Part shown: positions 7,092 through 31,670 of the stretch, piece after piece
How the letters are laid out: the number at the start of each line of letters is the position of its first letter
Position numbering within the stretch: the stretch's first letter is position 1
Virus record (IMG/VR): IMGVR_UViG_3300009166_000001
Coordinates: 1 to 64,000 of that record
DNA: 64,000 bases
Origin: a virus
Reading direction: 5' to 3' (one strand)
Program-made: the position numbers and the translations under genes
Notes under the pieces: model-generated
The model's input: only the letters and a program-made list of their open reading frames with translations
What the model was told of the DNA's origin: nothing
The model's database searches: none

Positions 7092-8786
7092 TCAGAACAG
7101 ACTCGCCTGATCGGTGTCCTCGCCATCCTTATCCTCTGGATCCTCTGCAAAAAGCCCGAACGCTGTCTGATCATCCCCGTCTTCTCTTGCCTCCACGGCA
7201 TCCATCGTCGCAACGTCCTGCGGAATCGTACCGTAGCACCTCACATGTTCCTCTGCCCATGCGATCCGGGCCTTGGCAATCTCCACGTACTCGGCCTCCC
7301 TCTCGATCCCGATCCAGTCCTTCCCCTCCAAGATGGCAGCCATCGCCGTCGTACCGCTGCCAAGGAAGGGATCGAGTACCACGCTGCTTTTTCCAGGGGG
7401 GGTCACGAGCCGTACCAGCCACCTCAGCAGGTCTACGGGCTTCACTGTCGGATGCGTGCTGCGTTTACTCTCCAGACCAAGACTACGTTCCGCGGCACTC
7501 GCCTTAGCCTCGTATCTGAAGCACGGGAAGAAGCGAGCGGCAGTGCCGGTATCGTTGTAACCTTGTTCTCCGGGATGTCCCAATGCGCCCAGGAAGTCTC
7601 CGCTTCGCTTATTGACATGCGACGAATCAATCCATGTCGTCTTTCGTTCCCCGCTTTGCTCTCCTAGTTCACGGATCGGGCAGCCCTCGACACACTCCCA
7701 CACCTGGATGGTCTCGTTGCCAGTCGCGTCCGCGAAACCCTCGAACGAAGTTCCGCTGTATTCTCCAATACCGGCGTGGCCGCTATACTTGCCCTTCTTG
7801 AATCCTCCTCCATTCCCTGCCCGTGTTCCCTTCACCGTCTTCGTCCCTACCTGCTTACAGTCGGGATGATGGCAGAGTACGAGATTCGACGGCCAGCGAC
7901 CTTCCGGTTGCTTGAAGGCTTCAGGTGGTAGCCGTCCTCCACCAGCTTCCAGTATCGAGGATGTTCCCCCTGCCTCTCCTGTCAGGCCCATCGCTGACGT
8001 TGGGCGAACACCTCCACTGTAGGCTCCTCCATTGAGGTTGTCGCCTGTCGCAACTCGGCATCCGTCGATGTTGATCGCCCCCGTCCCATGTTTCAGGACA
8101 TTCTCTGCGACCGTACTAACAAGCGGCTTGCGGGCAACGACAATTGGTTCCCATGCGGGTTTAAGGGCAGTGCCCCAACCGGACCACCTGTGGGCGTCGT
8201 CGGTTGCAGGGGCATATTCAGAGGACGAGGCTTGTTCACGCATGAACTGGCCCGGCCCCGCACCAAACCCGCGTCCCGCCTTATTGTCGGGTGAACAGCC
8301 GCTCTTATACTTCCCGTGGGCAGGACTATCAGGATCGGGACCGCCCTGTGGACACCCCCGCGCCGCCTTGTCGATGGCCTTCGACACGTCCATCGATTTC
8401 GGAAACCCCGATCCGTAACACCACCCAAGCAACCCGATGCTGTCCCTGATCTCGAACCCAGCATCCTCGATGGCGCACGCGAGCCGATGGAAGGTTCTCG
8501 TGCCGCCGAAGGCGAGAATGTGGCCTCCGGGTTTCAGTACGCGGAAGGCTTCTTGCCACGTCGCCGGGTCGAACGCAACACCAGTGGCATCCCAGGCCAT
8601 ACCCATAAATCCACCGTTGCGTGTACCGTGACGACCAAAAGGCGTATCTGAATTAATGGATCTACCAGATCCATTTCGTGACACCGCCAAAAGATCATAC
8701 GGTGGGTCCGTCACGATGGCATCGACCGACTCCGGCTCCATCGCCTTCATCGCCTCGATGCAATCACTTGCAATCAGCTTGCCCAC
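7092..8786 (-). CDS. DNA methyltransferase (N6A/N4C, beta class) with large insertions
   Basis: VTDPPY near N-terminus; HPTVKP and [10 protein letters not shown] near C-terminus. Confidence 0.9.
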
Positions 8787-8787
8787 G

Positions 8788-9339
8788 TCAGACCTTGTAC
8801 GGCACTAGGGCCGCCTCGTTCATCACGTACAACGGATGCCGCGGCGATCCATTATTCGTCAGGCCCAAGCACATGACCTGCTTGCCCAGATTTGGGCCGT
8901 TCATCTCCCACATCCTGAACATCCACATGATTTTCTGGATCCTGTCCTCCACGAGACTCCTACGATGATTCCCCCACGCCATCACCACCAATCCCGCATC
9001 TACAACCGCCTGTGAAATGAACTCATCGTTCTTCGGTCCCACCACATCGATCCCGGCCTTCCTCGCCTCGCCTAGCTTCTTCGGATCCGTCGCTCGATAG
9101 GCGAACAGGTTCACCACCTCCAGCCTCCTGTACCCCCACTTCCTTGCGAACCCCATGCACCTCCGGATCGTTGGGTCATCCTTCTCGTGATCTGCTGTGC
9201 TCGGATTCAGCATCACGAACACGACCTTCCTGCCCGTCTCCCCGGTCCTCCTCCAGAGCAGATACCTGTACTCCCCATCGACCACGGCCCCCCGATCCTC
9301 TGGATCAAGCGCATTCTGCAAGACGAATGTTCCCGACAT
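8788..9339 (-). CDS. DUF1643 family protein
   Basis: YRYLLWR, VMLNPSTAD, DDPTIRRC, NLFAYRATDP, PRHPLY. Confidence 0.85.
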   Translation of the reverse strand: MSGTFVLQNALDPEDRGAVVDGEYRYLLWRRTGETGRKVVFVMLNPSTADHEKDDPTIRRCMGFARKWGYRRLEVVNLFAYRATDPKKLGEARKAGIDVVGPKNDEFISQAVVDAGLVVMAWGNHRRSLVEDRIQKIMWMFRMWEMNGPNLGKQVMCLGLTNNGSPRHPLYVMNEAALVPYKV

Positions 9340-10451
9340 CACGGTTTCCTTCCTGCCCCAAGTAATCTCTCCTTCGCTGTCCGAATCGAGATCAGCCCCA
9401 CCCGCTCCTCCTGTACCGCCTCGTAGTCCCCGATATCGAACCCCACCCATAACCGATCCAGCCCGTCCGCTGCCATGCACGTCGTCCCAGACCCGCAGAA
9501 TGGGTCCAGGACCAGCGGTGGCCTCGTCCCTGCATCATGCCTACACCCTGGCACGAAACCCCTGTCATGGCGCTCTGGCGTCCCCAGAGCCCCCTTCTTC
9601 TTCGGCTCCTGCCTTATCCCACGGTTGGACTGCTTCTCAGGCACCCCCTGAAAGTCCCTCTCCGCATCCCCACTACCCGACTTCGACTCGACTACCCGCT
9701 TCCACGGCTTCCCGCACTCGTCACACACCATCGGCGGCGTGGCCACCTTGATGCACGTCAACGGGATCTCCCTCGGGAACACCGCGTAGTGGTCCCCGGA
9801 GATTCCGTGGAAGCTGTCCGTCCCGATGTCCCACACGTCCCATAGGTTGTGAGTCGTTCGTCCAGCCTCGCTGTCCCAGAAGTAGTGACTCGACTTCGTG
9901 AACACCAGGATCGGCTCGTAGATGTGGGTCGGTCGATCCTGTACGCTCTCCGGCTGCGGCGTCGTCTTACGCCAGATCACTACCGCCCGTACATGCCACC
10001 CATCCTCCTGCGCCCGGATCAAGATCCGCTGCGGGATCAAGCACAAGTCCTTGTTCTTCAAGACCGGATGGGGTTGGACTCGACGCTGCCTCCCCAGCTT
10101 CAGTTCCGTGTACTGATACCGCTGCCCAACTCCAGGCTGGGGATCGTTCGATGGGTTCGTGTAGAAGCTGTCGTTCACGTTCCAGAACAGCACCCCGTCC
10201 TTCCGCAACACCCGCCGGATCTCCCGGAAGATTTCGATGGTGTGCTCGACGTAAAGTTCTACTGTCGGCTCCTGCCCGAACGCCCCCGTCCACCCATCTT
10301 CCCATGCCGTGACTTGATTCCCTGCGTAACTTCTCGGACCAAAGTAGGGCGGCGAGGACACGCAACACTGGACCACTTCGGGCTCCAGTCGCTTCAGTAG
10401 TTCCCTGGCATCGCCCTTGTGGAAGGCAGGTACGTCTAGCCCGAAGTTCAT
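9339..10451 (-). CDS. DNA N4-cytosine/N6 methyltransferase (beta class)
   Basis: SSPPY, HYAVFP, LDPFCGSGTT. Confidence 0.9.
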   Translation of the reverse strand: MNFGLDVPAFHKGDARELLKRLEPEVVQCCVSSPPYFGPRSYAGNQVTAWEDGWTGAFGQEPTVELYVEHTIEIFREIRRVLRKDGVLFWNVNDSFYTNPSNDPQPGVGQRYQYTELKLGRQRRVQPHPVLKNKDLCLIPQRILIRAQEDGWHVRAVVIWRKTTPQPESVQDRPTHIYEPILVFTKSSHYFWDSEAGRTTHNLWDVWDIGTDSFHGISGDHYAVFPREIPLTCIKVATPPMVCDECGKPWKRVVESKSGSGDAERDFQGVPEKQSNRGIRQEPKKKGALGTPERHDRGFVPGCRHDAGTRPPLVLDPFCGSGTTCMAADGLDRLWVGFDIGDYEAVQEERVGLISIRTAKERLLGAGRKP

Positions 10452-10458
10452 CGCCGTC

Positions 10459-10486
10459 AATGTAACAGGAAGTAGCTCTTTGTCAA
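10459..10486 (-). promoter_or_regulatory. sigma70-type promoter TTGACA-16-TACATT
   Basis: direct match; ATG follows after 7 nt. Confidence 0.7.
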
Positions 10487-26217: not shown

Positions 26218-26444
26218 CAGAACACTCCCTCGTCATCATCGTCATCGACTTCGATAGTCTCACCAAAGACTATCACCTCTGCCTTCTCCACTGCCCCCAC
26301 CATCGCCTCCCGCACCTTCCACTCCCACCCCTGCGCCTCGTCCGCGTTTCTGGCCAGCCTCGCAGATGCCCCACGAAAGGCATCCCCTATCGAGGCGAGC
26401 CCCTTCGCGGTAATCCATACGAGCCGTCCAACCATCACCAGTAT

Positions 26445-27383
26445 CTATAACTGGCCATCGCTTTTTGTCAAGGGACGATAGATCACGACTCCCTTATTGA
26501 TGTGCTGCTTGTACCCGGACGCTACTGCCGCCTCCTCGATCACGTCCAGGTCTACCGAATGCACTACTCGACCCCCAGCTATCGTTGCCTTCGCATCACT
26601 CTTTCGTACCGCCTCTACCTGCGAGATCGTGGCGTTATACTCCTTCATCTTCCGGAAGTACGCCTTCGCCTTCAGGCACACGTTCCTCTTTCGAAGCACT
26701 TCCAGCCGTCCAGCGGGCGGCATCACCGGCTCTGGTATCGGTTCGGGCCTTGGCTCGATCACCGGCTCTGGCTTCGGCTTCGGCTTCCTCGCACGCACAC
26801 GCACGGGCGCGTCCACACGCACCACCGGGCGCACACGCGCTACACGCACGCGCTCGCTCACGCGCCTGCGACCCTCCAGGTGCTCCCTGATCTTCTCGTA
26901 GTCCTCGTCCGATATCTCCCGCCTCGTCCTCGTCACGAACGGAATCTCCACCCCGATCCTCTTGGCCGCCGCCAAGAAGGTCTGCCGACTCACCGGCACC
27001 TTCTTGATCGCATCGTTCACGCTCATGCGCCCATGTGTCTGACGACAGCCCAAGCCCAGCTTGTGCGCCCTCGTCACGACCGACCACGCCGTCCTGCCTA
27101 TGCCCTCCGCGATCTCCTTCGTGGACTTCTGGCCGAGCAACTGTCTCAGGACCAGATCCTCCCCCGGTGTCCACTTCCTCGCTATGCCCGATGGACGGTG
27201 GAACGATTCCGACCGCACCTTCATCTCGTAGCACTTGAACTTCACCGCTTGGTAGCTACGGTTGTTCCCGAACCGGAGATTCAGTTCCTTCTGGAGCACA
27301 CGCCTGGAGAAGCGAGCCCCATACTGACGTAGGAACTCGTTCTCAGCATCGGTCCAGCCTATCCGTGCATGTCCACTTCTCAT
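26445..27383 (-). CDS. DNA-binding protein with two Myb/SANT-like HTH repeats
   Basis: WTDAENEFLRQ and WTPGEDLVLRQ...IAEGIGRT.WSV..RA.KLGL. Confidence 0.65.
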   Translation of the reverse strand: MRSGHARIGWTDAENEFLRQYGARFSRRVLQKELNLRFGNNRSYQAVKFKCYEMKVRSESFHRPSGIARKWTPGEDLVLRQLLGQKSTKEIAEGIGRTAWSVVTRAHKLGLGCRQTHGRMSVNDAIKKVPVSRQTFLAAAKRIGVEIPFVTRTRREISDEDYEKIREHLEGRRRVSERVRVARVRPVVRVDAPVRVRARKPKPKPEPVIEPRPEPIPEPVMPPAGRLEVLRKRNVCLKAKAYFRKMKEYNATISQVEAVRKSDAKATIAGGRVVHSVDLDVIEEAAVASGYKQHINKGVVIYRPLTKSDGQL

Positions 27384-27456
27384 GGCGACCCCAACGGGAT
27401 TCGAACCCGTGTTACCGGCTTGAAAGGCCAGCCTCCTACCCTTGGAGGATGGGGCC
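27383..27456 (-). tRNA. tRNA-Glu(UUC), encoded CCA
   Basis: cloverleaf; anticodon loop CTTTCAA; T-loop TTCGAAT. Confidence 0.9.
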
Positions 27457-27461
27457 TTCTG

Positions 27462-27536
27462 TCGGGGCGAGAGGATTTGAACCTCCGACGTTCGGCTCCC
27501 AAAGCCGATGCGCTGGCCAGACTGCGCTACACCCCG
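27462..27536 (-). tRNA. tRNA-Pro(UGG)
   Basis: CGGGGTG acceptor; loop TTTGGGA. Confidence 0.92.
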
Positions 27537-27540
27537 TCAG

Positions 27541-27614
27541 TGGACCTGATCGGACTTGAACCGATCACCTCCGGCTTGCAAAACCGGCGCTCTACCCAGA
27601 TGAGCTACAGGCCC
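27541..27614 (-). tRNA. tRNA-Ala(UGC)
   Basis: loop TTTGCAA; G3:U70 pair. Confidence 0.92.
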
Positions 27615-27664
27615 ATAGTGGCAGTTTGAGTCGGCCACTACGACTACAGCCCTCAATGGGCTTG

Positions 27665-27736
27665 TTGCAGGAGCGGGACTTGAACCCGCGATCTCCGAGT
27701 TATGAGCCCGGCGTCGTACCACTGGACCACCCTGCA
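27665..27736 (-). tRNA. tRNA-Met(CAU), initiator-like
   Basis: GGGCTCATAAC anticodon arm; U1:A72. Confidence 0.85.
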
Positions 27737-27740
27737 ATAG

Positions 27741-28110
27741 TGGAGACGGCGGGAGTCGAACCCGCGTCCGACCTGCTTCACGAACATCATCTACGTGCGT
27801 AGCTGCTCTTGGCTGGCAGCCCACCTCGATAGCCTCCTGCTATCCCCTCCCTGGCACCTCCACCACCGACTTGTGCTCCGTCAAGTCGGAACCGGGGTCT
27901 GGTCCTTCCCTTGTCGCCCACGAGCTACAGGACCGCTCACTCGTAGTTTCCGGCTTAGGCCGCCAGGGCCATCTGGCTCTGGACGGGCCTCTGCTGGTAC
28001 GACGGAACCGACTTGCGGTTGCCGTTTGGATCTTGCCTGATTGAACCATGCTCAGGCTCATGGACACGCCGACGTTCGATCCATCAGACCGTCGAAACCG
28101 TTTCGTCCCC
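27741..28110 (-). ncRNA. ssrA: tmRNA; predicted tag (A)GNRKSVPSYQQRPVQSQMALAA
   Basis: 5' GGGGACGAAACGGTTTCGAC; 3' GACGCGGGTTCGACTCCCGCCGTCTCCA with G3:U70; tag ORF 28023-27955 ends ALAA-TAA. Confidence 0.93.
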
Positions 28111-28113
28111 AAG

Positions 28114-28127
28114 GTTCTCAAAGAGCA
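28114..28127 (-). promoter_or_regulatory. boxA-like antitermination element TGCTCTTTGAGAAC
   Basis: matches rrn boxA (TGCTCTTT); directly upstream of tmRNA. Confidence 0.65.
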
Positions 28128-28129
28128 AT

Positions 28130-28587
28130 GAACCGAAGTTCCAGATCGAGTCAGGACGGTGTGCTTCTACGCCAATGGCTGATCGGGCGTACTCAGTGCA
28201 TTAACGGATTCCCAGGGACTCAACGTGGTCCTCCGTGTCTCACCTCTTTCAAGGCATCCTCGCGCTCCTTTCGTACTAGCGAGGCCAACACCTGCATCTG
28301 GCTTGCTCCAGTTTCCTCACGGCGCGGAAGGAACATCCTAGTACGACTCCGCTTATCCGATCCTCCCCTGGAGTGCTACCTTTCCCCGGTGGTCAATCCC
28401 GCCGATGTAAGTTCACCGTACCGTTCCACAAGATGTCTGTCGCACACCATCCTATGTTCCGGTTGTTCTCCTGCGGGTTGCTTGCCTTCGCCTCATGTTG
28501 ACTACTGCGCTTCCACCTCGCCACTCCTTAGCTGATGGCTGCTTCTAAGCCTACAGTCCATCCTGGCTCGATCTAGAACTTCGGTTC
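28130..28587 (-). ncRNA. large structured RNA carrying 23S rRNA H43/H44 (uL11 site) and sarcin-ricin loop mimics
   Basis: ~30-bp terminal stem 28130-28159/28558-28587; GGCTTAGAAGCAGCCATCA; CTAGTACGAAAGGA in a 6-bp stem. Confidence 0.8.
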
Positions 28588-28597
28588 TCAAAGAACA
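28584..28597 (-). promoter_or_regulatory. boxA-like antitermination element TGTTCTTTGAGAAC
   Basis: near-identical to the 28114 copy; at the 5' end of the rRNA-mimic stem. Confidence 0.65.
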
Positions 28598-28683
28598 GAA
28601 GGGGACGCTGCCTAGTCGAGAATCCGTCCGTAGTCCCTGGAAACGGGGAGAGGACAGAATTCGTTTTCGACAGCGTTGCCCCT

Positions 28684-28758
28684 GCGGCTCTCCTGGACTC
28701 GAACCAGGATGCGTAGAACTGGTCAGGTTCTACCGCTCTGCCATTGAGCTAAGAGCCA
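28684..28758 (-). tRNA. atypical tRNA-like element (nominal anticodon GAC; 7-bp anticodon stem)
   Basis: normal D and T arms; anticodon arm GTAGAAC-CTGACCA-GTTCTAC. Confidence 0.7.
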
Positions 28759-28759
28759 T

Positions 28760-29187
28760 ACATTCTACCTATGGGCGCTTAAGGGAACCCACTTGGATAC
28801 CTGCCCACCAGGATTTTTAGGTTATCAGTTCTGCTCCACTTTTCGTTTCGCAGTGCCAGACACCCTTCGTCCCGGCACCACTCGACTCTCCCGCTCACGA
28901 TGACGATGAACGACTGGAGGATCGCTGTCAGCTTCCGCGTGATCCCCCGGACCCATCCGGTCATCGCTGCGAAGAGAGCCTTGACCACAAGATCCATCTT
29001 CCACTTTCCCATCGAACTCGTCAAGCCTTTCGGCCATTGCAATCAATTGCACGGTAGAGATCGGAGACAGCCAACCTCTACCGTCCAATGGGGCCTGCGA
29101 CGTTGACTTTGACGGAGGCACCGTCGCCGGTCCCACTGGCCCCCCATAGTGCAGGGGGCCGATTCGACGCCAAGAACCAGTCCCGTC
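28760..29187 (-). ncRNA. candidate second large structured RNA / structured leader
   Basis: several stems, GNRA hairpin GCC-GAAA-GGC, no convincing ORF; begins at promoter. Confidence 0.5.
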
Positions 29188-29193
29188 ACTCTG

Positions 29194-29221
29194 ACTATAA
29201 CAGGACAGCGTGTTTTGTCAA
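29194..29221 (-). promoter_or_regulatory. sigma70 promoter of the ncRNA operon, TTGACA-16-TATAGT
   Basis: direct match. Confidence 0.8.
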
Positions 29222-29229
29222 GGGACTGT

Positions 29230-29700
29230 CTACGGATTCGGGTAGGCAACGATCTTCTCGAAGGTGATCCTTGCGAGGCAAGCTCCGGTAGCCGCTGCGG
29301 AAGTCGTCAGTTCCAGCCACTCGTCTGGGGCCAGACGAAGGGCATCGGGATCGGTCAAGACGTACTCCGTGACCCCACCAGTCACCCACAGCACATCCAT
29401 CCCGCCCGCGCTCCTGATCCTCAGATCCCATGTCCCGCCCACAGGCAGCCCCGTCATGTCCAGAATGACCCTCTGGACCGTCAGGAATCGCCTGGGGTTG
29501 CCTAGCTCCATCTCCCTTCGGGTAGACGCTGGAAGGCCCGGTACGTCCACCGGAGGCCCTGCCATGAACCTTCCACCAGCCACCCCTATCTCCGGCGGAT
29601 AGGCCCTCACCCCATCCTGATCGGTCGGATTCCCGGTCGGAGCCGTCCCGTTGAACTGCCCTCCCACCGCCAATGCCTGCTCCACTATTATCGGGATCAT
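29230..29700 (-). CDS. probable virion protein
   Basis: last ORF of the tail operon; GGAAAG RBS. Confidence 0.55.
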   Translation of the reverse strand: MIPIIVEQALAVGGQFNGTAPTGNPTDQDGVRAYPPEIGVAGGRFMAGPPVDVPGLPASTRREMELGNPRRFLTVQRVILDMTGLPVGGTWDLRIRSAGGMDVLWVTGGVTEYVLTDPDALRLAPDEWLELTTSAAATGACLARITFEKIVAYPNP

Positions 29701-29713
29701 GGTTCTTTCCTCC

Positions 29714-30196
29714 TCAGATGATGATATCGATCTCGTAGATCAACTGCGTCGTCGCGTACTTCGTGTCCACGGGAAAGGTGAAGTACGCTACCATGTGTCC
29801 GGCCGAGTCGAAGATCGCAAACTCCCAGAACTCCGGCGGGTTCCCGAACCCGTCGTCATTCGCCTCCCCGAAGTCCACCACACACTCGATCCTCACGATG
29901 TTCGGAGCAACGAACAGGATGCTGTTGAACGCCTTCACTCCTATCGACGGGAACACGAACCGGCTGTCTACCGGATAGCTGCCAGGGTTCTCAACGCAAT
30001 CCAAGTCCGTCAGGGAAGGGTTAGGTGACTTCGGCACCTTCGTCGGCGGTACGGTGTACTGCCATCCCCCTTCCCCAATCTTGAAGCCCCCCCCGAAGAT
30101 CCGGTCGAAGAACCCGAGAGGATCTACGGGATCCGCATGATACCTCGCCCATCCCTCTTCCAGCGATTCCGCGATGACGCCTATTACCGTTGTCAT
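29714..30196 (-). CDS. baseplate/tail-fibre attachment protein (P2 gpH N-terminal-like)
   Basis: IGEGG...EAN...EFAIFDSAG.MVAY.TFP. Confidence 0.6.
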   Translation of the reverse strand: MTTVIGVIAESLEEGWARYHADPVDPLGFFDRIFGGGFKIGEGGWQYTVPPTKVPKSPNPSLTDLDCVENPGSYPVDSRFVFPSIGVKAFNSILFVAPNIVRIECVVDFGEANDDGFGNPPEFWEFAIFDSAGHMVAYFTFPVDTKYATTQLIYEIDIII

Positions 30197-30209
30197 GTCC
30201 TCACCCTCC

Positions 30210-31670
30210 TCAGTGCGTCAACGTGGCCGTGAACGAGTACAGATCCGTGGAGATCACATCGGCCTCCACGACATCGTACAGATAGCGAAGGCCCGCGACA
30301 AGCCTCCTCGATATCCCCTTCCGAAGCAAGGCCCGAAGATTCAGGCTGGCCTTCGCGTGGATCACCAAGGCGAACCGTGCGAACTCCACATGGATCGGCT
30401 TCAGGTCGTACATCGCATCGACTACCCGCTCGAACACGTACAGCCTCTCCTGGTCCGTCATCGCTACCGAGGGATCGTACTCTAGTTCCACCCCGATCTT
30501 GTGCGTCCCGCAGTAGCAGCAGTCCAGCCAGATCGGACAGGCATAGTCGAACAAGGCTTGCCCCGAAGGAGCCGGTCCTGCTCCCGATACGATCACCTTC
30601 CAGACGTTCGCCCCCAGGTACTCCGGAATCGCCTCCAGGTAGTAGCTGTAGGTCGTGCCCCCGCTCGTCACGTCCAGGTGCCAGTGCCCCGGCCATGCAA
30701 TCGCAAGTAGTGCCGTGGACGGTGCATTGATCGTCAGTTCCCATCCCGCGTAGGGACTCGTGAAGGCTACCCCTGACGAGATTGGGTACGGCCCCAACGG
30801 GATCACAGACGAGAACGCTGGATCCGAGCAGAAGATGTCGGTCGGGATGATGTCCGCGGCGATCTCATCGTAGAGTGGCATCCTTGGCTCAACGCACGTG
30901 TAGAACTTCCCACTCCCCACCGGGATCTCGAACACCTCGTCCGGCGGCAACGAGGACTCGAACCCGCACCGCACTCTCCATAGGTGGCACAACGACACCG
31001 TGAACCCGTAGAGCTTGCAGATGTACTCGTAGCCCTGTTGCGTCCCCTTCCACATCCTCCGCTGGTCATGGTGGAGGATCTGCGACCGCTCCCGAGCCTC
31101 CCCTAGATACTGGTCCACTTCCTCCCCGAAGTCGGCTCCCAAGTGGACGATCTGCTCCTCTGGCCGGAACCAATACTTCGTCCCGACCACCGGCTGATCC
31201 TCTGTCCCGTGAATCACCACCCGCCAGTTCGAGGTTGCCAGCGTCGTGTCGCTGTCGAGCTTGTAGACCCTCTCGACCACCCACCGCTTGAACGCCAAGT
31301 CCTGCGTCTCGATAACCCAGGTCTTCGACGCCTCCTCGATGGGGCTTCCCTTGATGTAGAGTGAGAGCCAACGATTGCCTGGATCGTCCGACTCATGCTG
31401 CTCGATGGACACGATCTCGATCTCGTGACGCTGGTTGTACCTCGTCCTGCATGTCCAAGGGTTTCTCAGGTTGAAGAAGTCCCGAATCGACTCCCGCAGC
31501 ATCTTCACGGACGGGATGATAGTGTTCACGAAGTTCCGCATGAACGACTCGCCCTGCTTCTCGTCCCGGAGCCGTCTCATCTCCGGGATCTGATTCCACA
31601 GGACATCGTTCTCCCAGTACCACTCTCCGAAGTAGCCGGAGCCGAACCCACCTATCCCGAATCCAGGCAT
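30210..31670 (-). CDS. baseplate wedge subunit (P2 gpI / T4 gp7-like)
   Basis: HLGADFG...R..KGTQQGY...LKPIH motifs. Confidence 0.65.
   Translation of the reverse strand: MPGFGIGGFGSGYFGEWYWENDVLWNQIPEMRRLRDEKQGESFMRNFVNTIIPSVKMLRESIRDFFNLRNPWTCRTRYNQRHEIEIVSIEQHESDDPGNRWLSLYIKGSPIEEASKTWVIETQDLAFKRWVVERVYKLDSDTTLATSNWRVVIHGTEDQPVVGTKYWFRPEEQIVHLGADFGEEVDQYLGEARERSQILHHDQRRMWKGTQQGYEYICKLYGFTVSLCHLWRVRCGFESSLPPDEVFEIPVGSGKFYTCVEPRMPLYDEIAADIIPTDIFCSDPAFSSVIPLGPYPISSGVAFTSPYAGWELTINAPSTALLAIAWPGHWHLDVTSGGTTYSYYLEAIPEYLGANVWKVIVSGAGPAPSGQALFDYACPIWLDCCYCGTHKIGVELEYDPSVAMTDQERLYVFERVVDAMYDLKPIHVEFARFALVIHAKASLNLRALLRKGISRRLVAGLRYLYDVVEADVISTDLYSFTATLTH

Follow-up and report, generated by a model that had tools for sequence, protein, structure and literature searches.

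The large RNAs carried by phages that come closest to the one described here are ROOL and GOLLD, ornate RNAs of phages and prophages that lie near transfer RNA (tRNA) islands and form RNA-only nanocages (PMC12286853). Their covarying loop pairings, first read as tertiary contacts, turned out to be intermolecular, and a further RNA, OLE, has been proposed to sequester a ribosomal protein (PMC12286853). Here, we analyze a non-coding RNA of ~460 nucleotides (nt) encoded on the minus strand at 28130-28587 of the first 64,000 nt of IMG/VR virus record IMGVR_UViG_3300009166_000001 (hereafter, the window), whose ends resemble the GTPase-associated center (GAC) of 23S ribosomal RNA (rRNA) and whose 350-nt middle carries a hairpin like the sarcin-ricin loop (SRL). 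On the ribosome, the GAC and the SRL are neighbors in three dimensions and together they are where EF-Tu, EF-G, and other translational GTPases dock and have their GTPase activity switched on.

We could not find a published precedent for a free-standing RNA, encoded by a phage, in which two distant rRNA elements reproduce a functional center of the ribosome, and no such RNA family is described in the literature searched. The covariance models of Rfam 15 (ROOL, GOLLD, OLE, RNase P, group I and group II introns, and all others) give no match to the element at E values up to 10, where a scan of 28050-28760 returned only the flanking tRNA and transfer-messenger RNA (tmRNA) genes; the bacterial large-subunit model LSU_rRNA_bacteria (RF02541) has no match in the window or in the whole 95-kb record. 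The original prediction, made from the letters of the window, had not recognized the element as a described family, in agreement with these searches. The principle of RNA mimicry is already known from ribosomal-protein leaders, 6S RNA, tmRNA, and Y RNAs.

Architecture of the element

The element consists of the following parts, given in the order of the transcript:
28558-28587, minus strand: 5′ arm of the closing stem (H42-like, processing-type), 30 nt, 90% complementary to 28130-28159
28523-28557, minus strand: 5′ half of the GAC mimic, with H43, the 1082-1086 turn, and the 5′ strand of H44 (equivalents of 23S 1056-1090)
28173-28522, minus strand: 350-nt insert that opens H44 between the equivalents of U1090 (28523) and G1091 (28172)
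28249-28380, minus strand: core of the insert, with the PB domain, the anti-SRL loop, and the SRL hairpin, as delimited by a covariance model built from other members
28338-28346, minus strand: anti-SRL segment UCGUACUAG in a hairpin loop of ~19 nt, complementary at 9/9 positions to 28271-28279
28258-28284, minus strand: SRL-like hairpin, a 6-base-pair (bp) stem CCUCGC/GCGAGG around UAGUACGAAAGGAGC
28158-28172, minus strand: 3′ half of the GAC mimic, GGCGUAGAAGCACAC, with the H44 hexaloop and 3′ strand (equivalents of 23S 1091-1105 by direct reading)
28130-28159, minus strand: 3′ arm of the closing stem, present in the minimum-free-energy (MFE) fold

The closing stem of about 30 bp that the original prediction had placed around the element dominates the MFE fold (fold z-score −3.2), and we infer that it is of the kind cut by RNase III to release rRNAs. 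The tip of H43, GGC-UUAGAAGCA-GCC, is located at 28551-28537 (minus strand), and all 19 positions of 28551-28533 agree with E. coli 23S 1062-1080 (rrlH sequence), where the original prediction had given near identity; by our own calculation, the H43 18-mer GGCTTAGAAGCAGCCATC is expected by chance about 2e-6 times per 64 kb. The 5′ motif of the family to which the element belongs, GGNNNGUNGGC-UUAGAAGCA-GCCAUCNNNUAANGAGU (equivalents of 23S 1055-1090), is present at 28558-28523, and the 3′ motif UUGGCGUAANAGCACAC resumes after the insert, at 28176-28159. H44 is thus split by 350 nt, as had been proposed, and a 3-bp helix that we call P1 (28520-28522 with 28177-28179) begins and ends the insert.

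One earlier reading had to be given up. The stretch CCAGGAU, just before GGACUGUAGGC, had been taken as part of a copy of 23S 1051-1059 with a 3-nt insertion; it pairs with CCGUCCUG and belongs to the closing H42-like stem, because GGACUGUAGGC in the window aligns with GGAAUGUUGGC in the family (equivalents of 23S 1055-1064) without a gap.

In the SRL-like hairpin, a bulged-G motif (AGUA/GAG), a C-G pair, and a GAAA tetraloop are stacked on the 6-bp stem. It agrees with 23S 2652-2665 at 13 of 14 positions and, over a 17-mer read directly, at 15 of 17, the count originally given; the window has a single match to the pattern TAGTACGNRAGGA, where 0.01 would be expected. At the sequence level, UAGUAC-GAAA-GGAG on a 6-bp stem constitutes a sarcin-ricin motif of the H95 type.

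A family of GAC mimics and its SRL-bearing branch

The H43 18-mer is found in more than 116 viral contigs, with no genuine 23S gene among the matches listed, and each copy listed leads into UAANGAGUG and a variable insert, with the motif UUUGGCGUAAUAGCACAC at a distance of 73-378 nt downstream. The window element shares the ends, the insertion point, and the tRNA-cluster context and is a member of this GAC-mimic family. It is set apart by its GC-rich sequence, 30-bp closing stem, boxA-like flanks, and tmRNA neighbor, and its 350-nt insert is the longest seen (others, 73-340 nt). Invariant across the family are G1091-U1094 and A1098-A1103, as well as G1071, C1072, G1091, C1092, G1099, C1100, U1060, and A1088; these last eight make tertiary contacts in the 58-nt GAC crystal structures.

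The family contains several kinds of inserted domain, because the long inserts (~300-340 nt) of loci L039 and L042 (loci are numbered with the prefix L) differ from the one in the window and have no SRL module. Among 100 loci chosen by the H43 motif alone, the window's type of insert was present just in L035 and the L052 group, so the SRL-bearing form is a small minority of the family. When the inserts of 71 GAC-family members were compared with E. coli 16S and 23S rRNA, they gave no more matches than shuffled controls; because no other 16S or 23S likeness recurs, the sole second rRNA module to have been acquired is the GAC's own neighbor on the ribosome.

The SRL-bearing branch was collected with the pattern UAGUAC-N4-GGA joined to the 3′ GAC motif, and duplicates and chance matches in coding DNA (L122/L131, L125/L133/L156, and L144) were removed; the aberrant L140 was dropped from some counts. 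The resulting 31 distinct elements come from viral and metagenome contigs that range from very AT-rich to 60% GC and reach 239 kb. Their alignment has a mean column identity of 47% and therefore does not consist of recent copies of one sequence. Searched against E. coli 23S, a profile hidden Markov model of the 31 members finds two matches only, at 1053-1088 (E 1.8e-11) and 2652-2665. The relatives keep the H43/H44 and SRL motifs, with UAGUAC and GGA of the SRL in part imposed by the search pattern. The window can also be recovered from its relatives: a leave-one-out covariance model of the insert core, trained on 25 other members over 137 positions and free of GAC sequence, has a single match in the 64-kb window, at 28380-28249 (55.8 bits, E 1e-11, positions 1-137 of 137).

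On the 31-element alignment, we tested a structure of 52 pairs that we derived by combining RNAalifold with mutual information and inspection. In this structure, 88.9% of cells are paired, versus 34-43% when partners are slid by 1-3 columns; compensatory changes on both sides occur in 44 of the 52 pairs, and none of 500 shuffles reached the observed covariation values. Every pair covaries in the SRL stem (6/6, 93.5% paired), in the family's equivalent of the closing stem (11/11), and in P1 (3/3, 100% paired); the GAC part covaries at 1057-1081 and 1058-1080 (H43) and at 1082-1086, and further covarying helices of the insert are P2, P3 (AGGG/CCCU), PB, and D. This pattern shows that the element folds as an H42/H43/H44 three-way junction like the uL11-binding GAC, that a multi-helix domain grows from H44, and that this domain presents a hairpin of the sarcin-ricin type.

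The same data bear on whether the element could be a decaying fragment of captured rRNA or a functionless spacer used in processing tRNA and tmRNA. Its position between RNA genes and the processing-type stem that bounds it would suit such an origin. The likeness to rRNA is, however, limited to two short stretches, extensive compensatory covariation in unrelated phages contradicts decay, a search of 185,579 prokaryote species genomes did not find the element, and contigs from RNA libraries cover its interior, which leaves this explanation barely credible. The original view of a purpose-built mimic, as opposed to a captured piece of rRNA, accords with the two short 23S-like stretches set in a covarying, non-rRNA scaffold in 31 elements.

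The search of those 185,579 genomes, made with the SRL pattern plus the 3′ GAC motif, returned 0 matches and thus no clue to a host or prophage, and blastn of the element against 50,697 annotated phage genome records, a set from which close records may be missing, found no match. Open reading frames (ORFs) around 32 loci, clustered by blastp, had nothing in common beyond one clade of related phages. Flanking tRNA genes are the recurrent context: they are present in the fetched flank of 23 of 30 relatives, and the window element likewise lies among phage tRNA genes of the same strand. In L137 (1918-2805), a phage tmRNA gene (tag AAPVKMAA) comes immediately after the GAC-SRL RNA, and the order of genes matches that of the window. 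In L136, a tRNA with a CUA anticodon (1161-1235; called as tRNA-Pyl, of the amber-suppressor type) directly follows the element, which hints at stop-codon recoding in that phage.

A strand that competes with the SRL hairpin

The anti-SRL loop, a feature absent from the original prediction, lies ~70 nt upstream of the SRL hairpin and is complementary to the hairpin's 5′ strand. Pairing of 9-11 contiguous bases is found in 24 of the 31 members, usually at a similar distance upstream, and across the family the positions are paired in 87% of cases, with covariation at four flanking pairs. Three bases that flank the anti-SRL core covary with the top of the hairpin stem of the respective element, and the base facing the first tetraloop position covaries as well (C-G 14, U-A 3, U-G 3, G-C 2). 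L160, found by a search that did not require UAGUAC, has a hairpin with UGGUAC and a loop with GUACCA, which is a compensated change in the core itself.

Since they share nucleotides, the anti-SRL duplex and the SRL hairpin exclude each other within one molecule. Their nearest-neighbor energies are of similar order, with a mean of −12.6 kcal/mol for the duplex, a value that omits the loop penalty, and −6.1 kcal/mol for the hairpin, which omits the bulged-G bonus. These features suggest that the anti-SRL loop either works as a switch, masking the SRL, or links one molecule to another. Five loci that form one clade (L119, L124, L134, L143, and L152) have a second segment complementary to the SRL 5′ strand (GUGCUAAUGC or similar), ~99-106 nt upstream of the hairpin, and retain the usual anti-SRL loop too.

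A loop of this kind could instead be aimed at the host. As an antisense or assembly factor, the GUACUA loop would pair with the SRL strand of host 23S while 50S subunits assemble, or the whole RNA would attach to ribosomes, with the internal SRL copy acting as a self-inhibitor. Within the window element, CGUACUAGGA has 10 nt of complementarity to UCCUAGUACG, the SRL strand of the E. coli type, slightly above the 9 nt that it has to its own hairpin. We nevertheless regard this role as very improbable: across the family, the bases flanking the loop covary with the hairpin stem of the respective element and not with the near-universal 23S flank, and the loop of L160 tracks its own UGGUAC.

A bridge between molecules would fit a self-assembling ornate RNA that forms multimers in the manner of ROOL and GOLLD, which would use its GAC-like and bulged-G modules as sturdy construction units and its SRL/anti-SRL pairing to join molecules. 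The element is large and multi-helical, sits in tRNA clusters of big phages, and has no conserved protein neighbor that we could find; its anti-SRL pairing crosses PB and covaries, and covarying loop pairings proved intermolecular in both of those RNAs (PMC12286853). Shared folds alone would not, however, call for ~36 nt of continuous near-identity to 23S together with a loop identical to that of the SRL, and Rfam finds neither ROOL nor GOLLD here even at E values up to 10. We therefore consider self-assembly quite unlikely as the main role, and it is in any case compatible with mimicry.

Genome context and evidence from RNA libraries

The IMG/VR record is 95 kb long, has an estimated completeness of 58% and ~60% GC, and holds nearly all of its genes on the minus strand. 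Because it encodes a contractile-tail sheath, the phage is a large myovirus. The element fills the gap between a tRNA-Val-like gene and the tmRNA gene on the minus strand, surrounded by these features:
29194-29221, minus strand: sigma-70-type promoter of the RNA operon, with TTGACA, a 16-nt spacer, TATAGT, and an extended −10 TG
28684-28758, minus strand: tRNA-Val(GAC)-like gene directly upstream of the element (ARAGORN, tRNA-Val; Rfam tRNA, 41.5 bits)
28585-28597, minus strand: first boxA-like site, UGUUCUUUGAGAA, overlapping the first bases of the closing stem
28242-28571, no strand assigned: stretch covered without mismatch by metatranscriptome contigs from two libraries of one wetland study
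28115-28127, minus strand: second boxA-like site, UGCUCUUUGAGAA, inside the 19-nt spacer before the tmRNA gene
27740-28110, minus strand: tmRNA gene immediately downstream of the element (Rfam tmRNA, 100 bits, E 7e-38; ARAGORN)
27383-27736, minus strand: four tRNA genes (Met, Ala, Pro, and Glu) at the end of the RNA cluster (ARAGORN, Rfam)

BoxA recruits NusB/NusE antitermination, and long closing stems are sites for RNase III. The degenerate boxA pattern TGYTCTTTRANAA, whose matches in E. coli rrnH are limited to the leader and spacer boxA, matches the 64-kb window exactly twice against 0.01 expected; both matches are on the minus strand and flank the closing stem. A looser form, GTTC[TA]TTGA[AG]A, lies just upstream of the element in 4 of 30 relatives (L121, L124, L142, and L152). 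The promoter is strong, agrees with the consensus at 11 of 12 positions, and is the sole promoter-like site within 26400-30300. We therefore liken the layout, in which a promoter, leader, tRNA, boxA, stem-enclosed RNA, boxA, tmRNA, and tRNAs follow one another, to that of an rRNA operon.

Two contigs from the RNA libraries span most of the element, record 10 of library X10 (28264-28571) and record 18 of library X11 (28242-28559); they match it over 308-318 nt without a letter that differs. Both pass from the 5′ GAC half into the insert in unbroken, colinear order, which argues that the insert is retained and not spliced out, and they weakly indicate that the element is expressed. A self-splicing intron was rejected on the same colinearity, no joint being reported inside the element, with the proviso that contigs can miss rare forms. 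None of the library contigs that we saw falls on the body of the tmRNA, on the tRNAs, or on the leader, and a stretch without coverage is uninformative.

Several details of the cluster deserve mention. The anticodon arm of the tRNA-Val-like gene is over-long, with 11 nt in place of 7 in the anticodon-loop region of the Rfam alignment, so the tRNA-Val(GAC) call may denote a tRNA-like molecule instead of a decoding tRNA. The interval of ~430 nt between this gene and the promoter (28760-29187, minus strand) has no Rfam match and may be a leader or a further RNA; its ORFs are short (87 and 103 aa), and the 103-aa ORF matches no Pfam family. The tmRNA of the window has an unusual predicted tag peptide, EGPDPGSDLTEHKSVVEVPGRG, without the usual ALAA-type end. 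A 12-nt inverted repeat (92% complementary) links 28209-28220, in the 3′ part of the element, with 28632-28643, in a hairpin of the upstream spacer, and could be due to chance or to an alternative pairing in the precursor.

Searches of the flanking ORFs with Pfam and PHROGs identified only a D5-like regulator, a DUF2793 protein, DNA methyltransferases, and the tail sheath; two of the methyltransferase genes adjoin each other (7092-8786 and 9339-10460, minus strand; phrog_67, E 6e-67 and 4e-36). Neither a uL11 gene (PF00298) nor a Ro60/TROVE gene (PF05731) was found in the 95-kb record, which is ~58% complete. A ribosomal-protein autoregulatory leader was considered and rejected, as the element precedes tmRNA and tRNA genes and the record has no uL11 gene.

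A putative imitation of the factor-binding site

The GAC and the SRL together form the docking site of translational GTPases, and in the element the uL11-binding domain and the SRL are combined in a scaffold unrelated to rRNA. We infer from this an imitation of the site that works away from the ribosome. The original prediction had named a toxin decoy, a sponge for uL11 or elongation factors, and a damper of the RelA response as candidate functions. On balance, the element is probably a stable myovirus RNA of ~460 nt that would act off the ribosome as an imitation of the factor-binding site, with a decoy as the favored form. Such an RNA would bind host uL11, and perhaps the uL10/bL12 stalk, and would draw off something that normally recognizes the factor-binding site. 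The likeliest client would be a ribosome-targeting enzyme of conflict or defense that attacks H44 or the SRL, and the anti-SRL loop may hide the SRL until a trigger arrives or may pair between molecules. Plausible clients exist, because both retained loops are known targets: Tre23 ADP-ribosylates H44 at 1095-1098 (PMC8661411), VapC20, according to work cited in that paper (PMC8661411), cleaves the SRL, and SRLase1 cleaves the SRL in an EF-Tu-dependent manner (bioRxiv 10.64898/2026.09.18.752725).

A more specific form of the decoy, which we put forward tentatively and which may well not hold, would have the RNA assemble with uL11, the uL10/bL12 stalk, and perhaps uL6 into a free-standing miniature GTPase-activating center. 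This particle would lure ribosome killers that are guided by factors, such as EF-Tu-dependent SRL nucleases and H44-modifying ADP-ribosyltransferases, and the anti-SRL switch would expose the SRL upon assembly or engagement.

The element could also act more simply as a sponge for uL11, and possibly for uL10/bL12, leaving ribosomes without uL11 that fail to activate RelA (as in relC) or disturbing host ribosome assembly, with the SRL domain as an accessory. The uL11-binding half is common to the whole, much larger family, and sequestration of a ribosomal protein has been proposed for OLE RNA (PMC12286853). A1067, universally conserved in bacteria as far as is known, is needed for contacts with thiostrepton and EF-G rather than for uL11 binding, and in the family it is free to vary. 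A sponge leaves unexplained the gain of the SRL, the 23S-like GAGA loop in half of the members, and the anti-SRL loop, and neither a uL11 gene nor another partner was found nearby; we judge it unlikely as the whole account. The decoy remains our preferred reading, with the uL11 sponge and the self-assembling ornate RNA as its main rivals, and all three are mutually compatible.

Several observations weigh against an off-ribosome decoy. The SRL module is present in only 2 of ~80 distinct GAC-motif elements, and the lack of an SRL in most members counts against one universal client. The search pattern did not fix the four tetraloop bases, and it speaks for the imitation that 15 of 30 members nevertheless have the GAGA of 23S there (the window has GAAA); in about one third of members, on the other hand, the tetraloop is not of the GNRA type (AGAA, CAGA, CGAA, AAAA, or CAGC); the A1067 equivalent is G in 12 of 30. 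Because both A1067 and the tetraloop vary, there can be no universal client that needs these exact bases, and the invariance of UAGUAC and GGA is partly imposed, since the search required both. The displayed SRL may not be the resting state, because the exclusive anti-SRL pairing persists in L160 despite its changed bulged-G motif. The RNA-library contigs stem from a single study, perhaps also the source of the DNA, and may reflect DNA carry-over. Finally, the binding and the phenotype that we ascribe to the element are predictions.

If the lure for ribosome killers is real, it would represent a new class of anti-defense, an RNA decoy of a ribosomal active site. An imitation of the factor-binding site would imply that phages act on translation there, to manipulate or protect it, by RNA and not by protein. 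The element would be the first known case of a stand-alone RNA that reproduces a functional center of the ribosome from rRNA elements that are distant in sequence and adjacent in space. It also offers a natural minimal model of the GAC plus the SRL for structural and biochemical work, and its built-in anti-SRL strand suggests a regulated or multimeric state.

Comparison with known systems

Set beside the systems that it resembles, the element keeps some of their features and departs from others:

(i) The GAC of 23S rRNA (tip of H42, H43, and H44; E. coli 1051-1108), which binds uL11 and thiostrepton, is retained as a three-way junction with the H43 loop UUAGAAGCA, the 1082-1086 turn, the H44 hexaloop, and the partners of the base triples. 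Unlike the GAC, the element is a free-standing phage transcript in which H44 is opened at 1090/1091 by a 350-nt domain, 1089 is always G, the 1090-1101 pair is U-A and not A-U, and A1067 is G in 40% of relatives.

(ii) The SRL of 23S rRNA is matched by UAGUAC-tetraloop-GGA, a bulged-G motif on a Watson-Crick stem whose core is identical in half of the family. Unlike the SRL, the hairpin stands on an unrelated and freely covarying stem, has GAAA in place of GAGA in the window and non-GNRA loops in some relatives, and is partnered with a conserved complementary loop.

(iii) Ribosomal-protein autoregulatory leaders (e.g., the L10 leader), 6S RNA, tmRNA, and the tRNA-like Y RNAs share with the element the principle of an RNA that imitates a natural nucleic-acid partner. 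Leaders act in cis on the mRNAs of ribosomal-protein operons, whereas the element is a putative trans-acting RNA in a tRNA/tmRNA cluster that combines two rRNA elements 1600 nt apart in 23S and has no ribosomal-protein gene found nearby.

(iv) ROOL and GOLLD are, like the element, large, highly structured, phage-borne RNAs beside tRNA genes, with long-range covarying loop pairings and without a known protein partner. They differ from it in lacking any similarity of sequence or Rfam model and are not reported to copy these rRNA sites (PMC12286853). If our reading is correct, the element would stand beside them as a third type among the large ornate RNAs that phages carry near tRNA islands and, unlike ROOL and GOLLD, one whose sequence suggests a testable partner.

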